A DNA stretch of 42,507 bases from Escherichia phage glasur, in the sequence record MN850583.1; one strand, given 5' to 3'. Position numbers and translations under genes: made by a program. A model generated the notes under the pieces. It worked only from the letters and a program-made list of their open reading frames with translations. It ran no database searches and was not told the DNA's origin. Positions 7,008-42,507 of the stretch are shown in pieces. How positions within the stretch are numbered: position 1 is the stretch's first letter; every line of letters starts with the position of its first letter.

Positions 7008-7208
7008 ATGTTTCGTGTATTAATGTTATTCGCACTTGTCGTTATATTGTGGGGCGCGTTATGGGTAGGTGTTGCCTATTTCATTCAGCCCTACATTGGC
7101 GAACAGCTTACCTCTGTAATTGGTACGCTGCTGGGCTTTGTTGTTGGCGCAGTTGGTATGACCAAGTGCATTGACATTGGCTGGAGTAAGGGGTGGGTGA
7201 AATGGTAA
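7008..7208 (+). CDS. Small membrane protein (66 aa, two predicted transmembrane helices)
   Basis: ORF track. GGAGG ribosome-binding site. Hydrophobic segments LMLFALVVILWGALWVGVAYFI and VIGTLLGFVVGAVGM. Confidence 0.65.
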   Translation: MFRVLMLFALVVILWGALWVGVAYFIQPYIGEQLTSVIGTLLGFVVGAVGMTKCIDIGWSKGWVKW

Positions 7209-7642: not shown

Positions 7643-8349
7643 TGAAATCAGTGAGCAACGACGAGTGGCCGGAGCTGGCGAAGCGTCTGCCTGTAGGACA
7701 AAAGCGAAGGACGTTTCACAGTTGCTCGCGGTCATTCAACAAGACCAACTTCGAGTATGGCCGTGCGCCGGATTACATCTGGTGCAAGTGCCACCGCTGT
7801 GGGTACAGCCAGAAGCGTGACCTGACTCACGCTGTGTATGTGCCGCCAGCCGAGGTGCAGGTGAAGGTGCCGACTGATGTGGTGCCTATCACTGAGGTGA
7901 TTGCCAAGCAACCACGGCTGCTGCTGCCAGTGCTGGAGCGGGAGAACCTGATGCCACACCTGTCACTCCTGACTGCAAGCCCAACGTATGGCAGGCTGTA
8001 TCTGCCGGACGACACGGGCAGCTACTGTGGTCTGGACTACACGGGCAGGCAGTTCATCCCGTGGCGCTCGCCGCATAAGCATAGCTTGGCGATGAAGGTC
8101 AGTCCTCGTGGTGACGCGGAGACTAACTGCCTCTGGATTTATGGTGAGGTGGATGAGTATCTCCAGCAGGTGCGCGATGGTGGCAACTGTGCATTCGTTC
8201 CGAACGTGGATGATGCAACGTTGCAGGCTCTGGTCAGTGTGACGCTGGCGTATGGGTACAACCTCGTGGTCATCTGCCACCACCCAAGCGCCCAACGTAT
8301 CCGCAGGGAGCTGCGTATTGTGGGGCGTGTGCAAATCGTAGGAGAGTGA
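7639..8349 (+). CDS. Putative DNA primase (Cys-rich N-terminal zinc-binding region)
   Basis: Cysteine cluster HSCSRS...CKCHRC near the N-terminus and position immediately upstream of the helicase gene, as in phiKMV-like phages with separate primase and helicase. Assignment is mainly by position. Confidence 0.45.
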   Translation: MMKSVSNDEWPELAKRLPVGQKRRTFHSCSRSFNKTNFEYGRAPDYIWCKCHRCGYSQKRDLTHAVYVPPAEVQVKVPTDVVPITEVIAKQPRLLLPVLERENLMPHLSLLTASPTYGRLYLPDDTGSYCGLDYTGRQFIPWRSPHKHSLAMKVSPRGDAETNCLWIYGEVDEYLQQVRDGGNCAFVPNVDDATLQALVSVTLAYGYNLVVICHHPSAQRIRRELRIVGRVQIVGE

Positions 8350-8350
8350 T

Positions 8351-9616
8351 GTGCTTGACAAGCTGTTGTTAACGGTGATGCGCGAGCGCGGGAAGTTCAA
8401 CTCCCTGCGACACGCCATCCCGGAAGATACGATGAGCCAGACCACGAGCTATATGCTCAAGGCTTACGGCTCATACTTTGATGCGTTCCCGGACAGTGAC
8501 TACATTGACATTGACACGCTGGGTACACACGTTCGTTTAAAGACAGGCAGCACGCCTGAACAGATGGCAGCCTTTGATTCGTTGTGCTCGCAGCTTCGAG
8601 AGTACAAGCCAACGAAGGAACAGAAGGAAGGTGTGCTTGACCAGCTCGTCGAGTTGGATACCGCTGGCCGTGCTAACCTGCTAATGCAGAGGTACGACAA
8701 TGGTGAGGAACTGGATATTATCTATGAGCTGGGCCGTCTTGCTGAGGGCGCACGTCGCAGCCGGGGGCAGTCATCTGTCACTGATTACGTGGACGATGAT
8801 GTGGTTGATATTCTCAACCGGACGGATGATAATCACGGCCTCAAGTTCGGTCTGCTCTGCTTGCAAGACAGCGTTCGCGTACTTCTACCCGGCGACTCCG
8901 TTGCCATCGGTGCTCGACCTGACAGCGGAAAGACTTCCTTCATCGCGTTTAACCTTACGCGAATGGCGGCGACAGCAGCGAAGCTCTATCCGGGCAGGCC
9001 AATCCTCTGGTTCAACAACGAGGGGCAGGGCATCAACATCATCCCGCGCATCTACCAAGCGGCGCTCAACTGCACGCTCCCGGAACTGAAAGAGCTGGGA
9101 GAGGACAGGGCTAAGCTGCACGCTGCGTATGCCAAAGCGCTGGGTGCGCCAGCCAACATCATCCGTGTGAAGGATATGCACGGCGCGTCGCTGGCGAAAG
9201 CTGAGCAGGTTATCGAAGCGATGAACCCATGCGTTGTGGTGTGGGATATGTTGGCGAACTTCAAGCTGTCTGTCTCCGATGCCAACAGCAACAAGGCGTC
9301 GCAGGTTGAGCAGCTATGGCAGGAGGTACGTGAGCTGGCCGTGCGCCACGACTTCGTATCAATGGCCACGGTGCAGGTATCAGCCGATGGCAAGGATGAT
9401 ATGTTCCCTGCGCTGGATGCACTCAAGGATTCCAAGACTGGTATCCAAGGTGCGACTGATGTTATCGTCATGCTCGGCAGCGTGGATGACCCATCGCTGG
9501 CAGCGCGGCGCGGCGTCAGCACTCCGAAGAACAAACGCCAGATTGCTGGGCGTCCATCCAACGTGCGGTCGCAGGTTCACTTCTTTGCTGACCGCTGCCA
9601 ATTTGAGGATATGTAA
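8351..9616 (+). CDS. DnaB-like replicative DNA helicase (T7 gp4 helicase-domain type)
   Basis: Walker A GARPDSGKTSF and Walker-B-like VVVWDM; 421 aa. GTG start with GGAGAG upstream. Confidence 0.75.
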   Translation: MLDKLLLTVMRERGKFNSLRHAIPEDTMSQTTSYMLKAYGSYFDAFPDSDYIDIDTLGTHVRLKTGSTPEQMAAFDSLCSQLREYKPTKEQKEGVLDQLVELDTAGRANLLMQRYDNGEELDIIYELGRLAEGARRSRGQSSVTDYVDDDVVDILNRTDDNHGLKFGLLCLQDSVRVLLPGDSVAIGARPDSGKTSFIAFNLTRMAATAAKLYPGRPILWFNNEGQGINIIPRIYQAALNCTLPELKELGEDRAKLHAAYAKALGAPANIIRVKDMHGASLAKAEQVIEAMNPCVVVWDMLANFKLSVSDANSNKASQVEQLWQEVRELAVRHDFVSMATVQVSADGKDDMFPALDALKDSKTGIQGATDVIVMLGSVDDPSLAARRGVSTPKNKRQIAGRPSNVRSQVHFFADRCQFEDM

Positions 9617-14341: not shown

Positions 14342-15316
14342 ATGAGTAGACTTCAACGCTTACTCCACAATGCAGAGGAACTTGATGACCAGTTTGATGG
14401 TTACGTGTCTGGTCGTATCTTGCTGTGCGATGCTGACTCCACGGTCTACGTCGCGGCAGCAACCACGAAGAACATCGAGACAGCGAAGACACGATTCTGT
14501 TCCGGGGTACTGACCGCCAAGTTCCTCGCCAATGCTCAGTCAGTTCGTATCGAGTTGACCGCTGCGGAGTGTACGAAAGCTGGACGGTACAAGCTGCGTG
14601 GGGCCAAGCTGTACCAAGGCAACCGAGACAAAGACCGCAAGCCCGGTCTGGTCGAGCCGTTGCGTAAAGCAATTGGCCGGAACATGTTCAACGTCCCGGA
14701 TGGTGAGGACTGGTACGTCCACCTGAACTTTGAGTTCGAGGCAGACGATACCTTAATCATGGATGCGTGGACGATTGGCATTAATGATGCAGTAATCTAC
14801 AGCGCGGATAAAGACCTGCGTTGTTGGCCGGGCAGATTCCTTGACCCGTATGACAACAAGGTGCTGGAGCCGTGCGTTGGTATTGGCAGGCTGTGGTGGC
14901 ATGAAACGAAAAGCGACAAGTCGCTGGTCGGCCACGGGCCTATCTTCTTTTGGGCACAGATGTTGATGGGCGACACCGCCGACAACATCGCTGGCGTGAA
15001 GAAGGTTGGGAAGCAGACTGCTTATGATATGCTGGTTGATTATCAAGAGATTGATGATGAATCAGTGGTTGCGGAATTGGTGCTGCGTGAATACATGCAG
15101 CGTGACCAGAACCCGTGGCCGGAGGCAGTGGCGCTGTGGCTGTACCGCACGCCGACCTACTCATTCGCAGCCCACTTGAACACGCTGACCTTGAGCAAGG
15201 AGCTGCGTGTCTGGCTGCATAATAAACTGGGTGAGGAATGGTATGCGGAAAGTGACTGGCGCGACTCTGTTGCAGCTACGGAAGAATGCGATGGGTTGCA
15301 ACTGCCCACTCTGTGA
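14342..15316 (+). CDS. 5'-3' exonuclease (FEN/T7 gp6-like)
   Basis: H3TH-type motif GDTADNIAGVKKVG and acidic clusters. Good GGAGGA ribosome-binding site. Confidence 0.85.
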   Translation: MSRLQRLLHNAEELDDQFDGYVSGRILLCDADSTVYVAAATTKNIETAKTRFCSGVLTAKFLANAQSVRIELTAAECTKAGRYKLRGAKLYQGNRDKDRKPGLVEPLRKAIGRNMFNVPDGEDWYVHLNFEFEADDTLIMDAWTIGINDAVIYSADKDLRCWPGRFLDPYDNKVLEPCVGIGRLWWHETKSDKSLVGHGPIFFWAQMLMGDTADNIAGVKKVGKQTAYDMLVDYQEIDDESVVAELVLREYMQRDQNPWPEAVALWLYRTPTYSFAAHLNTLTLSKELRVWLHNKLGEEWYAESDWRDSVAATEECDGLQLPTL

Positions 15317-17437: not shown

Positions 17438-17966
17438 ACGTGGCGACCACTTCTGCCTGTGCATCGAGCGCGACTACAAAGACGCGCTGCTTAATGAGCT
17501 GCGCGATGCTGGTGTAGTGCTGACATACGACGAGCCTTACGATGTGCCGAACGACAGTCGTGATTACTACACCTGCGTATACAATGGCAGTACCAAAGTG
17601 CTGGTGCTTGAACCATTCGAAGTGCAGGCCGTGGAGAAATCATTCATCCCGGTAGAGCCGGAAGCTGGGCCGGGCGGTATGAAGTATGACGGCGGTAAGC
17701 CACGCATGGCCCTGCTGCTCGACGGCTGCCCGAATGCACTGGAGGCTGTGGCCAGCGTGCTGACCTTCGGCGCTCAGAAGTACGCAGCTCACTCATGGCA
17801 GACTGTGCCGGAAGGTGAGGAACGTTACAAGTCAGCGCTGCTCCGGCACCTGACTGCGGTGGGTAAGGGTGAGGAACTCGACCCGGAATCTGGCCTGCAC
17901 CATCTGGCGCACGCTGCTTGCAATGCACTGTTCATTCTCGAACTGGCTTTAAGGAAAACTAAATGA
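17430..17966 (+). CDS. Putative MazG-like nucleotide pyrophosphohydrolase domain protein (178 aa)
   Basis: C-terminal half (KYDGGKPR...VLTFGAQKY...RYKSALLRHL...ESGLHHLAHAACNALFILE) resembles, from memory, the phage dATP/dGTP diphosphohydrolase (MazG-like) domain. N-terminal half is of unknown type. Confidence 0.45.
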   Translation: MSKRGDHFCLCIERDYKDALLNELRDAGVVLTYDEPYDVPNDSRDYYTCVYNGSTKVLVLEPFEVQAVEKSFIPVEPEAGPGGMKYDGGKPRMALLLDGCPNALEAVASVLTFGAQKYAAHSWQTVPEGEERYKSALLRHLTAVGKGEELDPESGLHHLAHAACNALFILELALRKTK

Positions 17967-18142
17967 CTGCTTTACTTTACGTGATTGCTCTGGCATGGTT
18001 TGTATACTTCACGCTGGCCTGCGTGAGCGCCTGTAAATCGTACAACCTAAGCCACTACCCGGAACGCGCTGGGTCTGCTGGCTTCGTGGTGTGGGTGCTG
18101 CTGGCTGTACTGCCAACGTGGTTCATTTGTTACTTGGCATAG
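17963..18142 (+). CDS. Small membrane protein (59 aa, two predicted transmembrane helices)
   Basis: Below the track cutoff. ATG with AAGGAAA upstream. Hydrophobic LLYVIALAWFVYFTLACV and FVVWVLLAVLPTWFICYLA. Confidence 0.5.
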   Translation: MTALLYVIALAWFVYFTLACVSACKSYNLSHYPERAGSAGFVVWVLLAVLPTWFICYLA

Positions 18143-37594: not shown

Positions 37595-37900
37595 ATGGCA
37601 TCCGTGAACAAGCAGCTCGATGGGCTGCACCGGATGCTGGTGGAGTATCTGTCCGACCGCTTGGCCGACGCCCGTAGAAAAGATGAGAACGGTAATATCA
37701 TCGAACCTATGGCGGCGGCTGAGCTGTCCGTGCTTCGCCAGTTCCTGAAAGACAACGGCATTCAGGCTGATAAAGACCACGCTGACGACCTGCTCGCGCT
37801 GCAAGAACAGCTCAACAACGAGAAGACCGAGGCTGGCCGCAAGGATATCATGACTGCTGCCATCAACTCAATCGCAGAAGATAGCGGGATGATGCACTAA
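37595..37900 (+). CDS. Terminase small subunit (T7 gp18-like)
   Basis: 101 aa helical protein immediately upstream of the large terminase, overlapping it by TAATG. Confidence 0.55.
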   Translation: MASVNKQLDGLHRMLVEYLSDRLADARRKDENGNIIEPMAAAELSVLRQFLKDNGIQADKDHADDLLALQEQLNNEKTEAGRKDIMTAAINSIAEDSGMMH

Positions 37901-39660
37901 TGGATTTACAACGCCGCATGGTGATGGCAGGAATCGTTCGCGCTCACTACGAGAACAACTTCCCGCTGTTCCTGCACGACTACTTCGCATGGCTGGGCTT
38001 TGACCTCACTGAAATGCAGCTCGACATTGGCCGCTACATGGCCGACCGGACGCTCAAGAACAAGTGCGTCATGGCGCAGCGCGGTGAGGCTAAGTCCACC
38101 ATCGGCATTGCTCGCGCTCTGTACGAATTTGTGCAGATGCCGAACGCTACTGTCCTGCTCGTATCCGGTTCCGACGACTATGCTGGTACGCTGTCGCACG
38201 CTATCGTGTCGGCTATCATGCAATGGGACAGGTTGGAATGGTTACGCCCGGAGACTCGCGCTGGCGCACGTACATCGTACACCGATGGCTTCGACGTGCA
38301 TCACGCATTCCGTATCCCTGATAAACAGCCCTCTGTAAAAGCGGTCGGTATCTTCGGCCAGTTGCAGGGGAACCACGTATCGCTGTTGATTGCCGATGAC
38401 GTGGAGACTACCAGTAACGGTAGCTCTCCTGCCAACCGCGCCCGTATCAATACCCTGACCAAAGAGTTCGCGGCTATCGCCAATGACGGTGCAGAGATTC
38501 TGTACCTCGGTACACCGCAGACTCAAGACTCCATCTATAACACGCTCCCGCAGCGTGGCTTTGATGTTCGCATCTGGCCCGGTCGTTTCCCAACGGTTGA
38601 GGAAGAAGAACGCTACGGAGGCTGTCTGGCCCCGTGGATTAAGCAGAAGATGGAGGGCCACCCGGAACTTCGCACAGGTTATGGTATCCTTGGGAACCGT
38701 GGTGCGCAGACCGACCCGCAACGCTACTCCGAAGAAAAGCAGTTGCAGAACGAACGAGACTACCAGCAGGCAGGCTTCCAGTTGCAGTTCATGCTGGACA
38801 CTTCTCTGTCGGATGCTCTCAAACAGACCTTGCATCTCAAGGACTTAATCTTCTTCCACGGCTCGCCTATCTCCGCGCCGGAAGTCTTGCATTGGTCGAA
38901 TCACCCACGGCACGCCGCCGAGCTGCCACTGGATTTCCCACTCGCTCGTGCGCAGCTATTCTTGGCTGCTGATTTCTCGGACACTTATGTACCATTCGAA
39001 AATGCCTCGGCGTTTCTTGACCCTGCTGGTGGTGGGTCGGATGAATCAGTTATCATCGTCACCGCTTCTATCGGCCCGTTTATCCACGTCCTTGGTATGC
39101 ACGTCTACCACGGCGGCCAGACGGAGGAAAACATCCAGACGGCGGTGTCGTGGCTAGGTGAGCTGGGCTGCAAACGTCTCGTCATTGAGGACAACATGGG
39201 CCACGGCACCGTGACCAACATGTACCGAGGTGAGATTAAGCGGCAGAAGCTGACCATGGGCTGCGAGGGTGTGTACTCGTCCGGCCAGAAAGAGGTGCGT
39301 ATCATCAACCGCCTCGGCCCAATCATGCAGCGCCACCGTGTGGTTGTCCACTGGAGCGTTGTTGAAGAAGACCTGCGGTTATGCCGGGGTATGGCCAACG
39401 GTGGTCGTGAGTACAGCCTGTTCTGGCAGCTCCAGAACCTGACTCAAGACCGTCAATCCATCCCGCATGATGACCGAATTGAAACCTTAGCCGCTGCCGT
39501 GTACCTCCACGCCGAGGTGTTGCAGCAAGACGAAAACGAAGAAGCGGAGCGCCGTGCAGTCGCTGTGGCCAAAGAGTTCATCGCCAACCCTATGGGGTAT
39601 GATGACCCGAAATGGCGCAGCCACAAGCCTGTACGCGGTACGCGACGGAGAATTAGATAA
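37900..39660 (+). CDS. Terminase large subunit (T7 gp19-like)
   Basis: 586 aa, the same length I recall for T7 gp19. Walker-B-like LLIADDVETT; canonical position. Confidence 0.85.
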   Translation: MDLQRRMVMAGIVRAHYENNFPLFLHDYFAWLGFDLTEMQLDIGRYMADRTLKNKCVMAQRGEAKSTIGIARALYEFVQMPNATVLLVSGSDDYAGTLSHAIVSAIMQWDRLEWLRPETRAGARTSYTDGFDVHHAFRIPDKQPSVKAVGIFGQLQGNHVSLLIADDVETTSNGSSPANRARINTLTKEFAAIANDGAEILYLGTPQTQDSIYNTLPQRGFDVRIWPGRFPTVEEEERYGGCLAPWIKQKMEGHPELRTGYGILGNRGAQTDPQRYSEEKQLQNERDYQQAGFQLQFMLDTSLSDALKQTLHLKDLIFFHGSPISAPEVLHWSNHPRHAAELPLDFPLARAQLFLAADFSDTYVPFENASAFLDPAGGGSDESVIIVTASIGPFIHVLGMHVYHGGQTEENIQTAVSWLGELGCKRLVIEDNMGHGTVTNMYRGEIKRQKLTMGCEGVYSSGQKEVRIINRLGPIMQRHRVVVHWSVVEEDLRLCRGMANGGREYSLFWQLQNLTQDRQSIPHDDRIETLAAAVYLHAEVLQQDENEEAERRAVAVAKEFIANPMGYDDPKWRSHKPVRGTRRRIR

Positions 39661-40331
39661 TGTCCCTGATTACCATCACCGATGCTCAGCGTTACGATAT
39701 CGGTTATCGCTGCAACATCGCAGCAAACCTCACCCAGCGGTTCGTGAATGATACCCGGACGGTGACGGCAGCTCAGGCTGCTGCTATTGATACAGCCATC
39801 GAGAACCTCATGACGGCGTTGGAAGCCGCAGGCTATAGTTCCGTACCGGATGGGTCTGCCATCGTCGCAGACGGCGCTGCAATCAACGTGGTGAACTTCA
39901 ATGGTACGGTCACTAAGGCTGGTACTGTTGACGTTACTGACGGTGTTGCTTCGGTCAACTTCCCTGTCACCATCGGTATGAAAGCCAATGGCGAAACTAT
40001 CTCTGTTCAGAACGTGTCCGGTGCCAATGGCATTGGCTCCACTGCATTCGTTGACTCCAACGGTGTGCTGCTGGCTGCCCGGCTCCCGGCTACCGCCGCC
40101 ACGCTCCAGAACAACGCTACGATTCAGATTCGCAACTCTGCGGGTACTGCTATCGGCAACGCCACCTTCAACGTGGCCTCTGGTGCCATCACCTACGGTT
40201 CGCTTCCGGCTACCATTGCTGGCGTAACCAACGGTCAGGCACTCACTGGTGTTGCGCCGACTGGCACGTACACCAACACTGTAACCTTCACTGTAGCTGG
40301 CGGCGTCATCACAGCTATCACATTGTCTTAA
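39660..40331 (+). CDS. Thr/Gly/Ala/Asn-rich beta-type protein of unknown function (223 aa); possible accessory fibre or adhesin-like virion protein
   Basis: ORF track. Imperfect internal repeats (NGTVTKAGTVDVTDGVASVNF, IGNATFNVASGAITYGSL, TGTYTNTVTFTVAGGVITAITLS). Unusual placement between terminase and lysis genes. Confidence 0.6.
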   Translation: MSLITITDAQRYDIGYRCNIAANLTQRFVNDTRTVTAAQAAAIDTAIENLMTALEAAGYSSVPDGSAIVADGAAINVVNFNGTVTKAGTVDVTDGVASVNFPVTIGMKANGETISVQNVSGANGIGSTAFVDSNGVLLAARLPATAATLQNNATIQIRNSAGTAIGNATFNVASGAITYGSLPATIAGVTNGQALTGVAPTGTYTNTVTFTVAGGVITAITLS

Positions 40332-40342
40332 TAGGAGTTCTT

Positions 40343-40528
40343 ATGGCCTTATCTGCATCTACCGCAGCCGAACGCGCCGAGTTCGTGGCAGCCTGTAATA
40401 TGGCAGCCAAGTACCTGAACGTTTGGGTTGAGGACGGTTACTTCGACACGACCAACACTGCTCTGATTGCCTACTATCAGACCTTCGTTACCCGTGTCTC
40501 TAACGCCCTTACTGCGCTGACGAACTAA
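40343..40528 (+). CDS. Small protein of unknown function (61 aa)
   Basis: ORF track. AGGAG ribosome-binding site. Confidence 0.6.
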   Translation: MALSASTAAERAEFVAACNMAAKYLNVWVEDGYFDTTNTALIAYYQTFVTRVSNALTALTN

Positions 40529-40539
40529 CGGAGTAACAT

Positions 40540-41028
40540 ATGAAACTGTCTCGGCTTATGGCCGGGGCAGTCTTGTCTCTGTCCTTGACATTGACGGGCT
40601 GCTCCGCAACAAGCGCACTGTCTGCTGTAACCTCGGCTGTCTCTCCCAATAAGCCGGAACTAACGGCACAGGTTGGCGCAGAGAACACGAAACAAGGCAT
40701 CGGCTTGACTGCGAAACAGTCCGACGAAACGAAGGTCGGTGACGTATCTGGTAACGCGCAAGTGGATACCGCTAAACAGGGTAGTGATTCGACGACTGTG
40801 AAGGACGTCACAGGAGGCTCTGTAAACGCTTCTAAGCAGGGGTCGCAAATGACCCAAGGGAACGTACAGGCTAAAACTGTTGTCATCTCACAGAGCGACC
40901 CACGCAGCCTCCTATGGGCTTTCGGCATGGGTCTGACCTGTATCTTAGGCTTGGTAATGTGGTTTGTACCATCTCCGTGGAAAAAGAAGGTGAAAGATGA
41001 CGGAAGCAAAGAAGGAGCCAGCTCCTAA
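40540..41028 (+). CDS. Putative unimolecular spanin (N-terminal lipoprotein signal plus C-terminal transmembrane helix)
   Basis: Lipobox LTLTGC at the N-terminus, Thr/Ser/Lys-rich periplasmic region, C-terminal helix LLWAFGMGLTCILGLVMWFV followed by basic PWKKKVKD. Adjacent to the endolysin gene. Confidence 0.5.
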   Translation: MKLSRLMAGAVLSLSLTLTGCSATSALSAVTSAVSPNKPELTAQVGAENTKQGIGLTAKQSDETKVGDVSGNAQVDTAKQGSDSTTVKDVTGGSVNASKQGSQMTQGNVQAKTVVISQSDPRSLLWAFGMGLTCILGLVMWFVPSPWKKKVKDDGSKEGASS

Positions 41029-41380
41029 CATCCACTCGCGTATGGGCGCTGTGGAGGCTCGTATGCAATCCGTAGAAACTCGCCTCGACAAACACGAGAT
41101 TCAAATTGCCAACCTTGAGAAAGGTGACGCTGCTATGCTGGCCAAGCTATCGGAGAACGACTCCCGGTGGCTGGAGATTCAGCAGCAGCTCCGTGTCGTC
41201 GAGCAAATTCAGGACATTCAAAAGACTATGAGCCACATTGGTAAGCTGTTTACTTACGCGGCTCACGCCGTCAAGTGGTGTCTCCTGACCGCTTCACTCG
41301 TTAGCGGTATCTATCTTGCGGTCAAGGCTGGCGACCTCACGGCGCTCCAGTCCTTTATCACAACGATTATGGGGATGTAA
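40997..41380 (+). CDS. Holin-like or lysis-regulator membrane protein (127 aa; coiled coil plus C-terminal transmembrane helix)
   Basis: ORF track. AAGAAGG ribosome-binding site; hydrophobic WCLLTASLVSGIYLAVKAG near the C-terminus. Assignment mainly from position immediately upstream of the endolysin. Confidence 0.35.
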   Translation: MTEAKKEPAPNIHSRMGAVEARMQSVETRLDKHEIQIANLEKGDAAMLAKLSENDSRWLEIQQQLRVVEQIQDIQKTMSHIGKLFTYAAHAVKWCLLTASLVSGIYLAVKAGDLTALQSFITTIMGM

Positions 41381-41916
41381 TGACTAACTTTGAAATCTGT
41401 ATGAAGTTCACCGGGCTGGCCGAGGGTGGGTACACCAAGCTGCCCGGTGACACTGGAGGGGAAACCAACCATGGAATTAGTGACGCTCGTGATGGGAAGC
41501 TGGATGGCAGAGCTTGTGGTGTCCCTACTGGGCTTGGCGGCACTGTGTGCGTGCCTATTAAACAGCTCACCAAAGAGCAAGCCGAAGCAATCTATCGCCG
41601 GGACTACTACAGCCCCATCAGAGGTGACGAGCTTCACCCTGCGATTGCATGTGCCGTGTTTGACTACGGCGTCAACTCCGGCGTCTCCCGTGCTGCTAAG
41701 GCTCTACAGCGGGTATGCGGGGTTGCACAAGACGGGGTTATCGGCCCTGCTACCGTGGCAGCAGCCAAACGTCTGGAACCTCACTCCGCAGCAGCATCCA
41801 TCTGTGACCTTCGTATTGCGTTCCTAGAGGCTTCTACGGCCACGACAGTGGTTCGCTATAGGGATGCCTTGGTTGCTCGTGCAAAACGCTGTAGCGCTTA
41901 CTGTGCGACGCTGTAG
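41380..41916 (+). CDS. Endolysin: GH108-type N-acetylmuramidase with C-terminal peptidoglycan-binding domain
   Basis: N-terminal signature FTGLAEGGYTKLPGDTGGETNHGI (the EGGY...D.GG.T.HGI family motif) and C-terminal AKALQRVCGVAQDGVIGPATVAAAKRL typical of peptidoglycan-binding repeats. No signal anchor. Confidence 0.8.
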   Translation: MTNFEICMKFTGLAEGGYTKLPGDTGGETNHGISDARDGKLDGRACGVPTGLGGTVCVPIKQLTKEQAEAIYRRDYYSPIRGDELHPAIACAVFDYGVNSGVSRAAKALQRVCGVAQDGVIGPATVAAAKRLEPHSAAASICDLRIAFLEASTATTVVRYRDALVARAKRCSAYCATL

Positions 41917-41999
41917 GGGTATCCGAAAGCTGACACAATGAACAGGCCGTGGGTGCAATACCCCGGCTTGAAAATTGAACGTTTATGCGTGGGCCTCCC

Positions 42000-42507
42000 T
42001 CGACCCAAATGACCGCGCGTACCCCCATGACGTGTGCGCGGATTAGCCTCGCGACGTGCGCGATATTGCTCGCGTGCGCTGCGCGGCGCGTCAAGAGGAT
42101 TGCCTGCGTGCGGTATAGCTCGTGCGTGTCGCGTTTCATCGTCTGCCGTGTGGCGTGCTGTGCGCTGTCCTGCTGGCTGTGCTGTGCGGTGCTGTCCTAT
42201 GGGGACGCTCTGCGCTGGCTGTGCTGTGCTGTGTGCTGCGCTCGGTCGTGCGGGTATCTGTCTCTTTTCGTCGTGCGCCGTGGTGCTGTGTGGTGGTGTG
42301 GTGTAGCGGTGGTGCTGCCGTGGTGCTGTCCTGTCTGCTGGTCTACTGTCTGCGCCGCCAGCTCTGCGCGTCATGCTCTGCTACTGTGTCACCTGTCCTA
42401 CTGCGTTCACTGGCTGCCGCCTGTCATCCTGTCGGATTCCATCCGTTGCCGTTCCGCGCTCGCTTGTTTCGGCTGCGCCGCGCTCGCTCTGCGTATCTAG
42501 CGATACA
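42000..42507. repeat. GC-rich, strongly strand-skewed (A-depleted) right terminal region with short degenerate GTGCTGT/GCTGTCC repeats
   Basis: About 6 A residues in roughly 230 nt (42130-42360) on the + strand. Recurring GGCTGTGCTGTGC and GTGCTGTCC units. Only Cys/Arg-rich ORFs with no ribosome-binding site. Confidence 0.6.
42255..42270 (+). promoter_or_regulatory. Candidate T7-RNAP class II pause/termination (concatemer-junction-like) motif TATCTGTCTCTTTTCG
   Basis: Resembles the T7 class II signal ATCTGTT followed by a U-rich tract, with one mismatch. In T7 this signal lies in the terminal repeat. Confidence 0.35.

Follow-up and report, generated by a model that had tools for sequence, protein, structure and literature searches.

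A predicted tail-anchored coiled-coil protein as a candidate holin in the lysis cassette of Escherichia phage glasur

The lysis cassette of Escherichia phage glasur raises the question of which protein lets its endolysin out of the cytoplasm. The window analyzed here is the whole 42,507-nucleotide stretch of sequence record MN850583.1, on which the plus strand carries all genes. The cassette (positions 40540-41916, plus strand) is located at the right genome end, after the large terminase gene (TerL, 37900-39660), and consists of three overlapping genes, p162, p127 and p178; the gene order is TerL, p223, p61, unimolecular spanin (u-spanin, p162), p127, endolysin (p178). When positions 39600-42507 were searched with megablast, stretches of 80-93% identity were returned from the coliphages forsur, usur, altidsur, LF82-23, J8-65 and others, all of which are classed as Bonnellvirus (Autographivirales). 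For phages of the Bonnellvirus and LIMEzero type, the lysis proteins named in published descriptions and RefSeq entries are limited to an endolysin and a spanin, and in the description of the bonnellvirus Kc261 the endolysin alone is mentioned as the lysis system (PMC8402661). The p127 product is a candidate for the missing holin, and in our best reading of synteny and comparative context it is the leading one. What is new here is a testable assignment of this 'hypothetical' gene, which lies between a known u-spanin and a GH108 endolysin, as a probable holin.

The soluble endolysin and the p127 family

The GH108 assignment of the endolysin, made in the initial annotation, was confirmed. p178 matched Glyco_hydro_108 (PF05838) at 6.8e-22 (78.2 bits, cut-off 21.2) and phrog_315 ('endolysin') at 2.6e-40, an AEGGY motif was located at residues 14-18, and relatives in the PDB were 7dnp (1.3e-23) and 2ikb. 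The C-terminal part was PG_binding_3-like, with a score for PF09374 below the cut-off (22.6 vs. 24.6). No signal, signal-anchor-release (SAR) or transmembrane segment was detected in p178, and no Kyte-Doolittle (KD) window exceeded 1.3 anywhere in the protein. Judged by its sequence, p178 is a soluble GH108 N-acetylmuramidase; as it carries no export signal, it would, under the established holin-endolysin model, therefore need a holin that passes folded protein. Relative to LF82-23 and megetsur, synonymous divergence (dS) was 0.22-0.26 for the endolysin gene vs. 0.87-0.93 for p127 and 0.45-0.57 for p162; a value this much lower than those of its neighbors suggests that the endolysin gene was recently exchanged by recombination among bonnellviruses.

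The p127 gene begins within the 3' end of p162, with an overlap of 32 nucleotides, and the last base of its TAA stop codon is also the first of the endolysin ATG (TAATG). These overlaps with both neighbors are consistent with translational coupling. An earlier description of p127 as an upstream-overlapping protein with a coiled coil and a C-terminal helix was correct as to the coiled coil and helix, which were recovered by AlphaFold and heptad analysis, and in error as to the overlap, which involves the downstream end of p162. The AlphaFold model (12-sequence alignment, mean pLDDT 84.7) was one unbroken helix from residue 12 to 110, a break at 111-113, and a short helix at 114-125. Heptads followed a single continuous register from residue 16 to approximately 68, with 67% hydrophobic residues at a/d positions vs. 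a background of 41%; across the family, the values were 66% at a/d and 29% elsewhere. The coiled coil runs straight into a hydrophobic helix (approximately 87-109; hydropathy peak at approximately 91-109, KD maximum 1.65) that was kept in 13/13 aligned family members, with 16 hydrophobic residues placed between K93 and K110. The protein ends with an invariant G112-D113 and a 14-residue amphipathic helix of net charge about 0. Hydropathy analysis indicated no signal peptide and a hydrophilic stretch over residues 1-85, and the basic residues cluster N-terminal of the transmembrane domain (TMD). From the missing signal peptide and the basic residues on the N-terminal side of the hydrophobic helix, we infer that p127 is tail-anchored, with the N-terminus in and the C-terminus out (N-in/C-out).

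Ratios of nonsynonymous to synonymous divergence (dN/dS) relative to LF82-23 and megetsur were about 0.10 for p127 and 0.08-0.14 for p162, which indicates purifying selection and that both are real genes. The start of p127 was considered separately, as several records annotate only a 105-residue form that begins at Met23. This codon is preceded by GTG GAG GCT CGT, which places GGAGG five nucleotides upstream, and the context was identical in 5 bonnellvirus relatives, though neighboring codons vary. Residues 1-22 were conserved as protein, so Met1 is a real start; Met23 was not conserved in distant family members. A dual start, holin/antiholin-like, with the 105-residue form as the second product could speculatively be read from this context, and the GGAGG may simply code for a conserved Val-Glu-Ala.

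The p127 product is 100% identical to glasur_53, and all of its relatives are annotated 'hypothetical protein'. Its only significant family match was phrog_35530 ('unknown function'), at 7.5e-57, and 13/13 family members matched this PHROG. Among 50,697 phage records, p127 was found only in bonnellviruses (84-99% conserved within the genus) and in Pantoea phage LIMEzero (53% identity). A profile search of 1.84 billion representatives returned a handful of full-length distant relatives (126-149 residues, 21-31% identity), which were upheld by reciprocal tblastn at about 1e-10. The distant relatives have the same design, i.e., an N-terminal Y-R-x-x-G-x-L-E, a long helix with V-V-E-x-I-x-D-I, exactly 16 hydrophobic residues between conserved basic residues (K93/K110 in p127), an invariant Gly-Asp, and an amphipathic C-terminal helix of approximately 14 residues. 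Foldseek of the p127 model against BFVD gave no match at E ≤ 0.001, a single long helix holding no fold information, and a PDB profile search gave generic coiled coils only, none significant.

In every case where the contig continues, the p127-like gene was located directly 5' of an endolysin gene. This was observed in Bonnellvirus, in LIMEzero and in six metagenomic lineages (L007/L019, L008, L009-L011, L013, L016 and L018), in which the two genes were often spaced by 0-2 nucleotides or overlapped by one base. The adjacent endolysin was of the GH108 family in Bonnellvirus and LIMEzero, and of PF00959 (Phage_lysozyme) in the six metagenomic lineages; an N-terminal hydrophobic segment was absent from all PF00959 endolysins of these six lineages. 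The order u-spanin, p127-like gene, lysozyme was repeated in L007 and L008, and no adjacent spanin was present beside the p127-like gene in L009, L013, L016 or L018. Endolysin family and spanin presence thus vary while the endolysin is always soluble, and the link between p127 and a soluble endolysin is therefore the constant feature. The p127-like gene has kept its place at the endolysin start despite exchange of the endolysin family, gain or loss of the u-spanin, and identities down to 21-31%. In L007, the u-spanin is a 167-residue open reading frame (ORF, 1170-1673; lipobox LWGC, TAQVG..NTKQG, C-terminal TMD) that the source assembly's gene caller did not pick up, and it overlaps the next p127-like gene by 83 nucleotides.

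The position of p127 was compared with that of known holins. In Pectobacterium phage PPWS1, TerL is followed by a 62-residue ORF, a u-spanin, an 88-residue protein and a lysozyme. The 88-residue protein has weak Phage_holin_2 matches and is annotated as a holin, and the lysozyme has a TMD at residues 6-26 (SAR-type). KP34-like phages have the cassette order 'spanin-holin-endolysin' (PMC4411677). Because PPWS1 and KP34 have a class II holin between the homologous u-spanin and the endolysin, p127 is placed in the holin slot.

The unimolecular spanin and the flanking sequence

The lipoprotein signal (LTGC lipobox) and C-terminal transmembrane helix proposed for p162 in the initial annotation were both recovered. 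The N-terminus, MKLSRLMAGAVLSLSLTLTGC, has a basic n-region and a hydrophobic core followed by the lipobox L18-T19-G20-C21, and the lipoprotein-signal test was positive (MKLSRLMAGAVLSLSLTLTG-C21-S22), with Ser and no Asp at +2 (outer-membrane sorting). L18, G20 and C21 were invariant in an alignment of 18 diverse homologues. The C-terminal hydrophobic segment (approximately 122-145, KD 19-mer maximum 2.01) is followed by a basic, predicted cytoplasmic tail beginning with KKKVK. In the AlphaFold monomer (18-sequence alignment, pLDDT 50.8), helices were placed only at 4-19 and 121-142; confidence was approximately 45 over residues 22-117, with no secondary structure assigned there. The u-spanin of J8-65 was reported with 163 residues and a periplasmic domain of 102 residues, 35/102 of them as strand (Kongari et al. 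2018 supplement, PMC6139136), a beta-rich character. The periplasmic domain of p162 has approximately 100 residues and carries a TAQVGAENTKQ motif and two copies of a unit of approximately 20-26 residues; TAQVGAENxKQ was invariant in the 18-member alignment (A47 and T50 nearly so). Three u-spanin length classes were apparent in this alignment (approximately 129, 162 and 188 residues), corresponding to one, two and three tandem units of the form AKQG..STTVKDV.G...V, and the periplasm-spanning domain of u-spanins appears, on this sequence comparison, to evolve in length by unit duplication.

The likeness to T1 gp11 proved stronger than had been claimed from layout. Direct BLASTP of p162 against T1 gp11, whose u-spanin function is experimentally established, gave E = 2e-15 with 34% identity, and both proteins matched phrog_1804 ('Rz-like spanin'), at 9.5e-37 for p162 and 9.7e-45 for T1 gp11. 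The database search with p162 returned 183 relatives, including a PPWS1 protein deposited as 'RzlA (u-spanin)' (50% identity, E = 3e-44), and relatives in RefSeq are annotated 'Rz-like spanin'; nothing was found in a PDB profile search. By these comparisons p162 is a unimolecular spanin and a true T1 gp11 homologue, beyond a similar layout. A u-spanin in a T7-like phage is already published and is not new. Kongari et al. 2018 (PMC6139136, Table 5) place J8-65 (type species of Bonnellvirus) and LIMEzero among the T1 gp11 u-spanins, and note that their u-spanins are unusually long and that they alone in the family have no associated pinholin and SAR endolysin; the pairing of a u-spanin with a non-SAR endolysin was thus already remarked on in 2018.

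A six-frame lipobox scan of the window left p162 as the sole credible lipoprotein ORF. An embedded or separate outer-membrane spanin was rejected, as the other lipobox matches fell either out of frame within large genes or within the A-poor non-coding terminus. One of the matches, a 47-residue ORF at 14370-14513 with a lipobox-like N-terminus (MQRNLMTSLMVTCLVVSC), is out of frame within the exonuclease gene and is probably due to chance.

Table 1. Coordinates of the lysis genes, the internal start codon of p127 and the genes between TerL and the cassette
Feature	Position	Strand	Evidence or remark
p162, unimolecular spanin, T1 gp11 family	40540..41028	+	phrog_1804, BLASTP vs. T1 gp11, hydropathy, lipobox
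p127, candidate holin, phrog_35530	40997..41380	+	AlphaFold, heptad and transmembrane analysis, synteny, adjacency to endolysin
p178, predicted soluble endolysin, GH108	41380..41916	+	PF05838, phrog_315, PDB relatives
Internal in-frame ATG (Met23 of p127), possible second start (speculative)	41063..41065	+	Codon context
p223, conserved, between TerL and cassette	39660-40331	+	Function not assigned
p61, conserved, between TerL and cassette	40343-40528	+	LIMEzero homologue ORF52

Coordinates are given in Table 1. The C-terminal stretch of p223 (…TGVAPTGTYTNTVTFTVAGGVITAITLS) is found again at the end of 98-residue proteins whose genes precede the p127-like genes of L012 and L018, and it matches a 'virion structural protein' PHROG. 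ORFs of 62-64 residues occupy the position equivalent to p61 in PPWS1 and L009. Downstream of the cassette, the plus strand of the right non-coding end (42000-42507) is nearly free of A (AT skew -0.65 to -0.84, GC 0.63) and contains short, degenerate repeats (TGCTG and GTGTGGTG). This composition accounts for the long ORFs called at the right end (41985-42500 on the plus strand, 41898-42374 on the minus strand), which are artefacts. Within the glasur window no terminal direct repeat was found; the J8-65 record has one of 259 bp.

Weighing p127 as the holin

p127 is small (127 residues) and has a moderately hydrophobic helix (KD 1.65) as its predicted TMD, and its gene overlaps the endolysin start by one nucleotide. 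The initial annotation had found no canonical class I or class II holin near the endolysin, which was confirmed: none was identified in or beside the glasur cassette by ORF analysis or by searches of Pfam, PHROGs and NCBIfam, and no classical holin was present beside the p127-like gene at eight further loci inspected. No holin is annotated anywhere in the J8-65 or LIMEzero records, and no annotated or family-matching holin was found elsewhere in glasur, J8-65 or LIMEzero. In hydropathy scans of these three genomes, the u-spanin and the p127 family were the only membrane proteins common to all, and a signal-peptide protein was common to glasur and LIMEzero only. A hidden holin was also sought in a 133-residue hydrophobic ORF (41426-41827) in the +1 frame of the endolysin gene; it is open in bonnellviruses, its hydrophobic segment is not conserved in LIMEzero, and with dN/dS of 1.2-2.0 it was rejected as a gene.

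On this evidence from sequence and gene order, we judge the chance somewhat better than even that p127 is either the holin itself or a subunit essential to it. The broader proposal is put forward more tentatively, at a little short of even: that p127 and phrog_35530 represent an unrecognized holin class of Gram-negative podophages, tail-anchored, in which a cytoplasmic coiled coil oligomerizes a single short transmembrane helix, and which, with no conventional multi-TMD holin, releases soluble endolysins of at least two unrelated families.

The proposed mechanism is as follows. The three coupled genes would be translated from one late transcript as a complete late lysis cassette. p127 would insert into the inner membrane through its C-terminal helix, N-in/C-out, with the coiled coil of approximately 85 residues in the cytoplasm, and parallel oligomerization of the coiled coil would bundle the transmembrane helices. 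At a critical concentration, the p127 assemblies would form lesions big enough for folded protein, through which p178, accumulated in the cytoplasm, would exit and degrade the murein. Lipoylated Cys21 would hold p162 to the outer membrane, and the C-terminal TMD would hold it to the inner membrane; with the murein meshwork removed, p162 could then fuse or disrupt the outer membrane, as has been demonstrated for the homologous T1 gp11.

Several observations weigh against the holin assignment. p127 had been called atypical for a holin, and this stands: no holin model matches it, nor does it have a significant match to any function-bearing Pfam, NCBIfam or PHROG family, and a search of the literature on tail-anchored or coiled-coil holins found nothing relevant. 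Its design is unlike that of classical holins. The charged hydrophilic C-terminal cytoplasmic tail of holins is not present, the charged domain being N-terminal and the C-terminus short and amphipathic. The hydrophobic core is short (16 residues between the conserved basic residues) and only moderately hydrophobic, and the helix could be interfacial instead of spanning. All carriers of the p127 family are Autographivirales-type podophages with a conserved gene order, and inherited synteny may account for some of the adjacency signal. The metagenomic contigs are mostly short, and the holin screen covered stretches of contigs (10.6 kb of the 42-kb L019), not whole genomes. The only named family that p127 faintly resembles is XhlA, which in Gram-positive phages always occurs with a conventional holin (PMC10630273) and would thus argue for an accessory role.

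This last point leads to the main rival, in which p127 is an XhlA-like holin partner or a lysis-timing regulator (co-holin or antiholin) and the true holin is encoded elsewhere, e.g., by the two-TMD ORF at 7008-7208; we regard it as unlikely. The similarity of p127 to Pfam XhlA (PF10779) was weak (E = 0.002; best family member 5e-4; E ≤ 0.01 in 5/13 members), and the layout, an N-terminal coiled coil and a C-terminal TMD, is that of XhlA. XhlA-domain proteins of Enterococcus phages and PBSX always adjoin a conventional holin (PMC10630273, PMC6834076), whereas no classical holin lies beside any p127-like gene at the eight further loci. The score of p127 was 18.6 bits vs. a gathering threshold of 34.7, the match joined p127 residues 19-64 to profile positions 2-47 of 67, i.e., the coiled-coil part only, and the matching motif (a VExRLD-type heptad) also pulls in dozens of soluble repeat proteins. 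Homology to XhlA was rejected as sub-threshold and limited to a heptad motif, and XhlA was kept as an architectural analogue.

The small two-helix ORFs at 7008-7208 and 17963-18142 that this rival would draw on do exist as initially described, and both are in the early/middle region. The first, which precedes the primase gene, contains two strong TMDs and was present in 19/19 Bonnellvirus records, but it was confined to this genus, was mostly only 45-50% identical within it (vs. 84-99% for p127) and was not detectable in LIMEzero; the second was absent from J8-65, smaasur, Lidtsur, LF82-23 and LIMEzero. Neither has a family match in Pfam, PHROGs or NCBIfam. With no family match and weak or patchy conservation, both were set aside as weaker holin candidates than p127.

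A second alternative, which we consider clearly improbable, is that p127 is unrelated to lysis, a membrane-anchored coiled-coil protein with another late function (assembly or packaging tether, superinfection exclusion, membrane remodeling) that sits at this place through inherited gene order. phrog_35530 has no functional annotation at the family level, and the carriers of p127 are all related podophages with a T7-like terminase just upstream. Further, a 42-kb IMG/VR contig from a related phage (L019) encodes in its early region (8202-8531) a 109-residue protein that also joins a coiled coil to a C-terminal TMD and has no sequence relationship to p127, and the layout is therefore not exclusive to lysis cassettes. 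Against this alternative stand the place at the endolysin start, kept through the changes in endolysin, u-spanin and sequence identity described above, the correspondence of this place with that of the holin in homologous cassettes, and a soluble endolysin that would otherwise have no exit route. Finally, it is barely credible that p127 is an inverted inner-membrane spanin subunit (periplasmic coiled coil, C-terminal anchor) of a two-component system with p162. In favor of this reading, inner-membrane spanins are coiled-coil proteins with a single TMD, and p127 and p162 overlap as Rz/Rz1 genes do. Against it, p127 has no signal peptide and 85 hydrophilic residues at its start, which leaves its coiled coil no means of export; its basic residues cluster N-terminal of the TMD; p162 is anchored in both membranes by itself and is a homologue of T1 gp11, which is self-sufficient; and four metagenomic lineages have p127-like genes with no adjacent spanin.

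Significance and comparison with known systems

The p127 family is, on its sequence features, an undescribed one of unusual, apparently tail-anchored coiled-coil design, with homologues beside two unrelated families of soluble endolysins. If p127 is the holin, phrog_35530, an uncharacterized family, would gain a function, a holin would be identified in Bonnellvirus and Waewaevirus, and a distinct holin design would be added in which a cytoplasmic coiled coil is carried on a single C-terminal transmembrane helix. A modular exchange in one slot would also be indicated, between a class II holin with a SAR endolysin and a tail-anchored holin with a soluble endolysin. As holins are already a very heterogeneous class, one more family would be an incremental rather than a conceptual addition.

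Of the known systems, the T1 gp11 family, whose u-spanins include those of J8-65, LIMEzero, KP34 and LIMElight (Kongari et al. 2018), is the one to which p162 belongs. Lipoprotein signal, C-terminal TMD, TAQVGAENxKQ motif, homology, PHROG and cassette location are alike. The two differ in length (133 residues in T1 gp11 vs. 162 in p162), because the periplasmic unit of approximately 20-26 residues is duplicated in p162, and in partner, p162 being paired with a soluble endolysin and most T1-family u-spanins with a pinholin plus a SAR endolysin.

The KP34-/PPWS1-like cassette is like that of glasur in its order right after TerL and an ORF of approximately 60 residues, in its u-spanin (50% identical in PPWS1) and in its gene overlaps. 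It differs in what follows, as the Phage_holin_2-type protein and SAR lysozyme of PPWS1 stand where glasur has the unrelated p127 and a soluble GH108 endolysin, the pair having been replaced as a module. The endolysin itself is an ordinary member of its group; PF05838 and EGGY are common to p178 and the GH108 N-acetylmuramidases of the coliphage N4 gp61 type.

Class III holins, e.g., T of phage T4, have a single TMD in N-in/C-out orientation and serve a soluble endolysin. p127 is alike in its predicted single-TMD topology, its cytoplasmic N-terminus and its soluble endolysin, and has no sequence relationship to them. In the distribution of its mass, it is predicted to be the reverse of T4 T: in T the cytoplasmic N-terminus is short and the periplasmic domain large, whereas p127 would have a large cytoplasmic coiled coil and only approximately 17 periplasmic residues.

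An architectural analogue is XhlA of the Bacillus subtilis prophage PBSX, together with the XhlA-domain proteins of Gram-positive phages; PBSX reportedly cannot lyse its host without XhlA (PMC6834076). Both p127 and XhlA are small and combine an N-terminal coiled coil with one C-terminal TMD, and both are encoded in a lysis cassette beside the endolysin. p127 is found in Gram-negative podophages without an adjacent conventional holin, whereas XhlA is always found with one (PMC10630273). p127 is also set apart from XhlA by approximately 40 additional residues, a conserved K-x-G-D motif and a C-terminal amphipathic helix. If the assignment is correct, the XhlA-type lysis proteins, themselves poorly understood, would have in p127 a counterpart among Gram-negative phages.

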